Source: Erysipelotrichaceae bacterium (GTDB lineage Bacteria > Bacillota_I > Bacilli_A > Erysipelotrichales > Erysipelotrichaceae). Taken from it: a stretch of DNA of 32,000 nt. Below the pieces are notes generated by a model that saw only the letters and a program-made list of their open reading frames with translations, was not told the origin of the DNA and did no database searches. Below are positions 20,978 through 21,459 of this stretch, piece by piece. Location: assembly GCA_963676105.1 (NCBI GenBank), contig OY781039.1:60001-92000 (forward strand). Reading direction: 5' to 3'. The position numbers were made by a program, and so were the translations under genes. How positions within the stretch are numbered: the first letter of the stretch is position 1; each line of letters begins with the position of its first letter.

Positions 20978-21121
20978 ATGAAAGCATTTTTTGAAGAGTA
21001 TGGCTTGGTTATTGTGGTCACTGTCATCGCGACGGGCATGATTTTATTCTCTGAAGGGTTTAAAACAACCATGCAAGAAACACTTGAAGGACAGTGGGCA
21101 AATATGACCACTATTAGTTAA
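20978..21121 (+). CDS. flp: Flp-like pilin (47 aa), absent from the ORF track
   Basis: MKAFFEEYGLVIVVTVIATGMILFSEGFKTTMQETLEGQWANMTTIS. The EEYGLVIVV...hydrophobic core matches the mature Flp motif (xxxEYGLI...). A strong GGAGG SD (20964-20968) precedes it, an in-frame stop lies 3 codons upstream, and its stop overlaps the next ATG (TAATG). Confidence 0.7.
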   Translation: MKAFFEEYGLVIVVTVIATGMILFSEGFKTTMQETLEGQWANMTTIS

Positions 21122-21459
21122 TGAAAGGCGCATTTGAGGCTACTTTGGTTTTATTCTTTGGAATGTTGTTTGTATTGATGGGAATGGATTATGTTGAAGT
21201 TCAACTCATTAACACTCAAGCTCGATCTTTAGCCGAATCAACACTTTCGATTATCGAACATCAGAATCGATATGATGCGAATGTTCAGATTTTGATTGAT
21301 AATAACCCATTAGTGTGTGAAGCTTGTACCCTACATCTCACCCCCCACACTCAATATCCTTCACGCTTTTGGGTTATTGTTGAATACCCTGTACATTTAG
21401 CTCATATCAATCTAGAGATGAAATCAGAAATTCGCCTTCTTTCAAGACCCTTAGGATAG
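21121..21459 (+). CDS. TadE-like pseudopilin
   Basis: MKGAFEATLVLFFGMLFVLMGMDYVEV resembles the TadE N-terminal motif (xxVEfALvlPvll). 112 aa. Translationally coupled to the flp-like ORF. Confidence 0.55.
   Translation: MKGAFEATLVLFFGMLFVLMGMDYVEVQLINTQARSLAESTLSIIEHQNRYDANVQILIDNNPLVCEACTLHLTPHTQYPSRFWVIVEYPVHLAHINLEMKSEIRLLSRPLG

Follow-up and report, generated by a model that had tools for sequence, protein, structure and literature searches.

Candidate pilins that begin with Met-Lys in a divergent Tad-like locus of Erysipelotrichaceae and Lachnospiraceae: a type IV filament lineage that may do without leader processing

Reviews of the type IV filament superfamily name a prepilin peptidase, an ATPase, a platform protein and class III prepilins as its universal components (PMC10191384, PMC4471445), and leader processing is described there as a prerequisite for assembly (PMC10191384, PMC4471445). 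Bacterial leaders comprise 6–26 residues and end in Gly, and a peptidase shared between subunits normally imposes one shared Gly on them (PMC4471445). In the Flp pilins of the Tad pilus, the mature protein carries Glu at +5 and Tyr at +6 (PMC3244431). Here, we analyzed a 32,000-nucleotide stretch of low-GC (~35%) chromosomal DNA from a member of the Erysipelotrichaceae (contig OY781039.1, positions 60,001 to 92,000; hereafter, the window), in which seven co-directional genes at positions 17465–21459, between an rnf operon and coaX, form a putative pilus operon. Its last two genes encode a 47-amino-acid (aa) Flp-like protein and a 112-aa protein named after its open reading frame (ORF), ORF7. 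Both candidate pilins begin with Met-Lys, and they may not be processed in the canonical way.

The operon resembles the Tad/Flp (type IVc) pili of Aggregatibacter (Flp1) and Caulobacter (PilA) in having one VirB11-like ATPase, two paralogous single-domain platform proteins and a CpaB/RcpC-like protein, together with a very small helical major-subunit candidate bearing E-Y-G-[LIV] and a larger TadE-like minor-pilin candidate encoded directly downstream. It differs from them in several respects: Met-Lys alone precedes the mature-type sequence, neither TadV/CpaA nor TadZ/CpaE is linked, the ATPase is short (~336 aa), the candidate pilins miss the Pfam families Flp_Fap and TadE, and the platform proteins match T2SSF weakly. 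Two features that define the Tad/Flp pilus, the Gly-terminated pilin leader and the linked TadV, are thus absent. The Tad pili of Gram-positive bacteria (Bifidobacterium, Micrococcus luteus and Bulleidia extructa; PMC3244431) are similar in the single-membrane host, the lack of a secretin and a peptidase that is sometimes encoded apart. However, those loci carry tadV and tadZ, whereas the loci described here carry neither and have pilins that constitute a separate sequence family; the Bulleidia operon begins with tadV (PMC12786226). The nearest precedent is provided by a few clostridial tad-like loci without a recognizable prepilin motif, yet these also carry tadV and tadZ (PMC3244431). No description of such a system was found in the literature under leaderless pilins, the sequence motif or Tad pili of Erysipelotrichaceae, and Erysipelotrichia are not mentioned in the supplements of Denise et al. 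2019.

The N-termini of three small proteins of the operon are tightly bounded by stop codons. The ATG of the Flp-like gene (20978–20980) is preceded by an in-frame TAA at 20969–20971, which also serves as the stop codon of the TadC-like platform gene, with the non-start codons ACT and CAA between them. For ORF7, the ATG at 21121–21123 follows an in-frame TAG at 21115–21117 with TTA alone in between, and for ORF1, the first gene of the operon (ATG at 17465), an in-frame TAG at 17456–17458 is separated from the start by GCG and ATC. The translations of the three small ORFs are MKAFFEEYGLVIVV, MKGAFEATLVLFF and MKGIMQASAFYVVL. An earlier interpretation made from the letters of the window (the sequence-only reading) had given these starts, stops and translations and had concluded that a longer leader is impossible; each start was confirmed on the sequence, and the conclusion holds, since in-frame stops sit 1–2 codons upstream of all three starts. 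The three proteins lack a hydrophilic leader of ~6–26 residues ending in Gly/Ala, and the Flp-like protein and ORF7 possess a ~20-residue hydrophobic N-terminal helix with a Glu near its start. A start with MK alone is common in this genome; what counts as signal here is that Lys2 and Glu6 keep their places where the hydrophobic helix begins.

The 47-aa protein contains an EYG-type motif (E-Y-G-L) followed by ~20 hydrophobic residues. Its E7-Y8-G9 aligns with E5-Y6-G7 of canonical mature Flp, and no Gly stands ahead of the canonical cut; because of this match, the protein corresponds to a mature Flp with two extra residues, Met-Lys. Its homologs (n = 99), including H9L01_01390 of Erysipelothrix inopinata, share the essentially invariant core KAFFEEYGLV, and the spacing between Shine-Dalgarno sequence and start seen in the window recurs in loci L003, L006, L008, L009 and L010. 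A HMMER profile of the family searched against 1.84 billion representative proteins gave 23 matches at E ≤ 1e-3. Seventeen of them align from residue 1 and start with MK..[FLMI]EE[YFM]G, four are longer gene calls in which the core (V/I/L/M)K[AS]FFEE[YF]G is internal, as expected of miscalled starts, and two are repeat proteins aligned only to the tail of the profile; a canonical Flp bearing a Gly-terminated leader was not among the 23. Pfam Flp_Fap did not match the 47-aa protein at E ≤ 1, no Pfam or NCBIfam family matched the small proteins of the operon, and PDB sequence searches with the Flp-like and ORF7 family profiles found no pilin. By its gene context and motif, the 47-aa protein is well supported as pilin-like.

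The predicted structure of ORF7 makes it a well-supported pilin-like protein as well, and a candidate minor pilin. All 30 of its homologs (49–100% identity) are 112 aa long and start with MKG[A/G]FE, and in every ortholog the start codon overlaps the stop codon of the Flp-like gene (TAATG, TTGA or GTGA). An AlphaFold2 (AF2) model based on the 30-sequence alignment (predicted local distance difference test score, pLDDT, of 87.8) comprises helix 2–48, helix 53–60 and three strands, which corresponds to the pilin “lollipop”, a long N-terminal helix with a three-stranded sheet. No Pfam family, including TadE (PF07811), matched ORF7, and Foldseek found no significant match to the model in the PDB.

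The sequence-only reading had treated all three small proteins as pilin-like, which was upheld for the 47-aa and 112-aa proteins and not for ORF1. The orthologs of ORF1 start with MKGIMQ, MKGVMQ, MKSIYL, MKGIIQ, MKTFNI, MKVYFL, MKISIA and MKSMVF; residues 3–7 are unconserved, with no fixed small residue at position 3 and no fixed Glu/Gln at position 6, and the pilin signature is therefore missing. A single-sequence AF2 model of low confidence (pLDDT 63) shows helix 3–51, helix 54–68 and three strands, a topology similar to that of ORF7. We regard ORF1 as a doubtful prepilin and, more probably, a membrane-anchored accessory protein.

The gene order and the N-termini are kept in two further Erysipelotrichaceae contigs, OY760660.1 (ATPase 90% identical) and CAZHIG010000007.1 (ATPase 78% identical), and apbE/rnf and coaX are the neighbors of this type of locus wherever its context was examined. 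A metagenome scan with an alignment of the ATPase yielded 63 loci. In a second architecture, the ATPases are 38–45% identical to the window type, and the named members (Luxibacter massiliensis, Ruminococcus sp. and Muricomes) belong to the Lachnospiraceae. The gene order of this Lachnospiraceae type is a pilin gene (53–60 aa), the ATPase gene, a fused platform gene (~500 aa), a second small pilin gene, a pilin-like gene (158–374 aa), an ORF7-like gene (110 aa) and a gene for a further membrane protein; the platform and ORF7-like genes are homologous to their window counterparts. All its pilin-like genes begin with Met-Lys (MKAFMEEYGV, MKTFLEEYGV, MKEFMEEYGG, MKAVLEEYAY, (GTG)KSWIGEYGK, MKVFIQEYGK and MKGAIETM), and ~88 of 99 Lachnospiraceae pilins start with MK[ATE]F[ML]EEYG.

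A census of 75 sources (734 kb) reduced 152 genes to 86 distinct pilin-like N-termini from the two architectures. In all 86, Lys directly follows the start codon, which is ATG in 67, GTG in 11, TTG in 6, ATA in 1 and CTG in 1; over all the pilins compared, Lys2 is invariant apart from one Gln variant. A Shine-Dalgarno-like tetramer lies upstream of 76 of these N-termini, 62 have no alternative in-frame start ahead of the upstream stop, and for 56 the upstream stop is at most 12 codons away with no alternative start in between. Residue 6 is Glu in 78. Residue 3 is A in 32, E in 11, T in 7, S in 4, V in 2 and G in 2 of the 58 EYG-type pilins (E, T or V in 20/58), whereas the ORF7-type proteins have G in 24, S in 3 and A in 1. 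It differs even within one locus, being A, E, S and G in the pilins of L040 and A, A, V and G in those of L027. Such variation at residue 3 speaks against canonical cleavage behind the MK[G/A] tripeptide emphasized by the sequence-only reading.

A longer leader arising from an upstream start was considered for the few genes with longer calls (MDAIK.., MGFLK.. and MLLSHYLKGGE.VK..) and was rejected, as the first codon of these calls is a GTG embedded in the Shine-Dalgarno sequence or a codon even more upstream. Where a start would be expected from the position of the Shine-Dalgarno sequence, these genes have TTG, GTG or ATG (ATA in L009). For example, the GTG called as the start in L009 and L010 is part of the Shine-Dalgarno sequence GGGGGGTG, and ATA or TTG stands at the normal spacing of 6 nt. 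We read the longer calls as miscalled starts rather than as a variable leader; on this reading, the orthologs have no longer leaders, as the sequence-only reading requires. In L009, which represents an Erysipelothrix-like lineage, the ATA at the pilin start position (10001–10020) stands 6 nt past the Shine-Dalgarno sequence, and one other locus has CTG there. Translation may start non-canonically at these codons; alternatively, it may begin at the GTG inside the Shine-Dalgarno sequence, which would lengthen the N-terminus by three residues.

Several of the loci showed additional features. The small pilin gene is present in four tandem copies (MKAFLEEYGVIIVAA...) at L033 496–1500 and in three copies in L034. 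In Lachnospiraceae-type loci, larger proteins encoded at L027 9772–10896 and L040 9860–10336 share the MK..EYG N-terminus, and the L027 protein has weak matches to LRR_5 (BspA-type) and Big_9, which suggests a tip adhesin. A PcsB/NlpC-P60 peptidoglycan hydrolase gene follows the Lachnospiraceae-type locus at L040 11601–12743 and L074 19420–20165, with a gene for a 1480-aa ChW-repeat protein (14765–19207) between locus and hydrolase in L074; this hydrolase might create an opening in the cell wall for the filament.

As the sequence-only reading had stated, the operon has no prepilin peptidase gene: no A24 peptidase-like ORF was found in the 32-kb window. The same was true of the 7–10 kb flanks of ~75 related loci. 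The GxGD[..][KR] motif, searched in ORFs of at least 100 aa from 74 sources, gave a single match, which was spurious, and Peptidase_A24 is absent from the precomputed Pfam lists of seven loci (L003, L006–L010 and L074). A peptidase hidden within the locus was rejected, the TadB-like and TadC-like proteins being paralogs of each other without a GxGD motif. The weight that the sequence-only reading had placed on the missing gene did not hold up, because prepilin peptidases are often encoded apart from their locus and shared between systems; all MSH loci lack one of their own, and tadV is treated as a gene able to lie apart from its locus (PMC6668835). The MSH system resembles the present loci in this respect, but its pilins carry normal leaders and depend on a peptidase supplied by a co-resident system (PMC6668835). 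Erysipelotrichales often have comG operons (PMC12786226), so this genome may well encode a ComC-type enzyme. A CPBP/Rce1-like intramembrane protease gene (PF02517, E = 2e-20) immediately precedes the pilin gene at L040 5382–6269 and also in L048 and L049; it was rejected as a conserved partner, being confined to this one Lachnospiraceae lineage and absent from the window.

The remaining genes of the operon point to a filament-assembly machine. The ATPase matches PF00437 T2SSE in Pfam (E = 7e-29), and its NCBIfam matches are VirB11 (2.5e-36), TrbB (1.6e-35), the TadA family (1.9e-32) and FlaI (1.9e-26), all below the equivalog cut-offs. The CpaB/RcpC-like gene matches TIGR03177 pilus_cpaB at E = 7e-9 (below its cut-off) and Pfam SAF at E = 0.006, and its orthologs carry PF16976 RcpC in precomputed Pfam lists. 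The TadB-like protein matches T2SSF weakly (E = 0.009, 100/125 profile positions covered) and is paralogous to the TadC-like protein by hhalign (probability 86%, E = 5e-6). The L008 ortholog of the latter matches T2SSF across the full domain at E = 0.02; both T2SSF matches are below threshold. In the fused ~500-aa platform gene of the Lachnospiraceae loci, it is the C-terminal half that is homologous to the TadC-like protein. PDB sequence searches with the TadB-like and TadC-like family profiles returned nothing relevant. No VirB4, VirD4 or VirB6 gene was found among the window ORFs or in the Pfam lists of orthologs. The CpaB/RcpC-like gene is missing from some Erysipelotrichaceae-type loci, in which the ATPase gene directly follows ORF1 (L008 7053–8391, L019 6627–7975 and L021 6630–7963), and this component is therefore dispensable. 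From the T2SSE ATPase, the CpaB/RcpC-like gene and the TadB/TadC-like pair, we take the operon to encode a divergent Tad-like (type IVc-like) machinery, which would assemble a filament in a single-membrane bacterium.

Given the established gene content, true N-termini, conservation over two architectures and lack of a linked peptidase gene, it appears an evenly balanced proposition that the subunits escape canonical processing and retain Met-Lys. We favor this over other registers because Lys2 and an acidic residue 6 are what stays invariant, rather than a small residue 3; the latter, the only candidate −1 position, is A, E, T, S, V or G in the EYG-type pilins and so departs from the Gly/Ala rule. 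The subunits would be translated in essentially mature form, with the initiator Met and the invariant Lys ahead of the filament-core helix. Lys2 would hold the N-terminus at the cytoplasmic face, a task normally performed by the basic leader, and the ATPase and platform would extract and polymerize the subunit with no prepilin-peptidase cut at a Gly/Ala site. Inside the filament core, Glu6/Glu7 would neutralize Lys2 and the N-terminal amine. The 47-aa Flp-like protein would be the major subunit, the 112-aa ORF7 the minor pilin and ORF1 the membrane-anchored accessory. The broader proposal, that a type IV filament lineage of Erysipelotrichaceae and Lachnospiraceae has dispensed with the peptidase step and polymerizes fMet-Lys plus a mature Flp-type helix unprocessed, falls in our estimate a little short of an even chance.

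Several points weigh against unprocessed assembly. As Flp_Fap, TadE and the pilins of the PDB were all unmatched, the label “pilin” rests on gene context, motif and predicted fold. In a few lineages with an in-frame GTG three codons upstream, and in the one with the ATA start, slightly longer N-termini are possible. The peptidase searches covered the window and the locus flanks, so ComC, PilD or TadV may be encoded elsewhere, and the prevalence of comG implies an available enzyme. Finally, both window pilins combine Lys2 with a small residue 3 (A, G) and would fit archaeal-type class III [KR][GAS] sites, although residue 3 is not uniform across the EYG-type proteins. Archaeal pilins and archaellins, which are processed by PibD, FlaK or EppA, may resemble the proteins described here in having Lys/Arg at −2, Gly/Ala/Ser at −1, short leaders and a Glu5 that is not obligatory; in our own comparison, the fused ~500-aa platform gene of the Lachnospiraceae also appears similar to the archaeal single-gene arrangement. 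PibD cuts leaders of 3–4 residues (Ng 2009, as cited in PMC4187195), but such leaders are engineered and not natural, residue 3 is often E, T or V in our loci, and the hosts here are bacteria with no archaeal-type peptidase linked.

In the main rival reading, which we consider unlikely, the subunits are ordinary class III prepilins whose three-residue leader (fMet-Lys-Gly/Ala/Ser) is cut by an unlinked A24 peptidase, e.g., ComC of a comG system. The mature Flp-like protein would then start at Phe4 (Phe-Phe-Glu-Glu-Tyr) and ORF7 at Ala4 (Ala-Phe-Glu). The Lys at −2 and the small residue at −1 agree with this, the ORF7-type proteins having G, S or A and the major pilins mostly A at that position, as do the cleavage of engineered leaders by PibD (PMC4187195), the tolerance of leader shortening in some systems (PMC4471445), the unlinked and shared peptidases of other systems (PMC6668835) and the frequency of comG loci in Erysipelotrichales (PMC12786226). 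The same cut would have to accept E, T or V in 20 of the 58 EYG-type N-termini and different residues among the pilins of one locus, and it would leave Glu at +3/+4 and Tyr at +5, as opposed to +5/+6 in Flp (PMC3244431). Known bacterial leaders are longer, with 6–26 residues, and Gly-terminated (PMC4471445), and an A24 gene is linked in none of the ~75 loci.

A canonical register could also be reached if a non-A24 protease trimmed Met-Lys or Met alone, yielding Ala1...Glu5-Tyr6 for the Flp-like protein in the former case and Lys1...Glu5 in both families in the latter; this seems improbable to us. Removal of Met-Lys gives the exact E+5/Y+6 register of Flp but places Glu at +4 in ORF7, and no peptidase is known to cut there. 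If Met alone were removed, Glu would come to +5 in the Flp-like family as well as in the ORF7 family, but methionine aminopeptidase is not known to act before Lys. The CPBP/Rce1-like protease would be a candidate enzyme in the lineage where it adjoins the pilin gene, yet its gene is confined to the L040/L048/L049 lineage and absent from the window, and no candidate enzyme is conserved with the locus. Still more improbable, in our view, is a superficial pilin likeness, with the small proteins serving as membrane-anchored accessories of a secretion or DNA-transfer ATPase complex. The failure of the Pfam, NCBIfam, Foldseek and PDB sequence searches to find a pilin is compatible with such a role; the scores of the ATPase against VirB11/TrbB are as good as those against TadA, and the helix-plus-three-strand layout of ORF1 and ORF7 also occurs in PilN/PilO-type proteins. 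However, EYG[LIV] followed by ~20 hydrophobic residues is the Flp signature, and a conserved Glu near the start of a membrane helix is typical of pilins. The tandem pilin paralogs (four in L033), the fusion of the same N-terminus to adhesin-like domains (LRR_5 and Big_9, both weak matches) and the presence of the CpaB/RcpC-like gene and the TadB/TadC-like pair in an operon devoid of VirB4, VirD4 and VirB6 likewise speak for a filament.

Table 1. Features of the putative pilus operon and its borders (window positions).
Feature	Position	Strand	Remarks
Terminator-like hairpin	17394–17415	+	9-bp stem followed by a T run; ends the upstream rnf operon and marks the 5' limit of the pilus operon
ORF1, 121 aa, first operon gene	17465–17830	+	N-terminal membrane helix and small alpha/beta domain; pilin status doubtful
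CpaB/RcpC-like protein, 234 aa	17827–18531	+	SAF-like domain behind an N-terminal membrane helix
Secretion ATPase, VirB11/TadA/FlaI group, ~336 aa	18524–19534	+	Start adopted from orthologs; longest ORF begins at 18470
TadB-like inner-membrane platform protein, 262 aa as longest ORF	19443–20231	+	Actual start may lie more downstream
TadC-like inner-membrane platform protein, 251 aa	20216–20971	+	Paralogy to the TadB-like protein; T2SSF match via the L008 ortholog
Shine-Dalgarno sequence AGGAGG	20963–20968	+	9 nt ahead of the Flp-like start
Flp-like candidate major pilin, 47 aa	20978–21121	+	MK + AFFEEYGLVIVVTVIATGMILF + amphipathic tail
ORF7, minor-pilin-like protein, 112 aa	21121–21459	+	Starts with MKGAFE; start overlaps the Flp-like stop (TAATG)
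Terminator-like hairpin	21452–21474	+	10-bp stem followed by TTTTTTT; closes the operon

Further observations concern the genes on either side of the operon (Table 1). In the rnf operon, the RnfD encoded at positions 13660–15165 (501 aa) has an FMN_bind domain fused to its C-terminus, and a separate RnfG comes next (15180–15683); the fusion is also present in L003 and L008 according to precomputed Pfam lists. RnfB is apparently split into a 56-aa Cys-rich ORF (16920–17090) and a 98-aa ORF with an FeS domain (17090–17386), a pair conserved in L001–L003. A tRNA-His (GTG) gene at 22340–22416 lies between coaX and a bactofilin gene, and the ORFs listed there on both strands are artefacts. The bactofilin (22627–23496) has a very acidic, Glu-rich N-terminal extension of ~150–200 residues that is conserved in L001 and L002.

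Overall, the loci constitute a broad family that, in both architectures, is described by no curated library or paper searched. If the subunits indeed have no leader to remove, leader removal would be dispensable, and one supposedly universal component of the superfamily would be gone; if a peptidase does cut after three residues, the proteins would set a new lower limit for its natural substrates. Judging from how the class III motif is defined in the literature, pilin finders that rely on motifs would probably overlook these pilins as well. The loci are common in human-gut Lachnospiraceae, ~20 near-identical metagenome contigs coming from one such lineage, and they keep the same gene order across the Erysipelotrichaceae. 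Cultured hosts exist in Erysipelothrix inopinata (CP060715.1, H9L01_01390) and Luxibacter massiliensis. Because the pilins escape Pfam and NCBIfam while the loci are common and conserved, a predicted surface appendage of gut commensals would be widespread yet unannotated.

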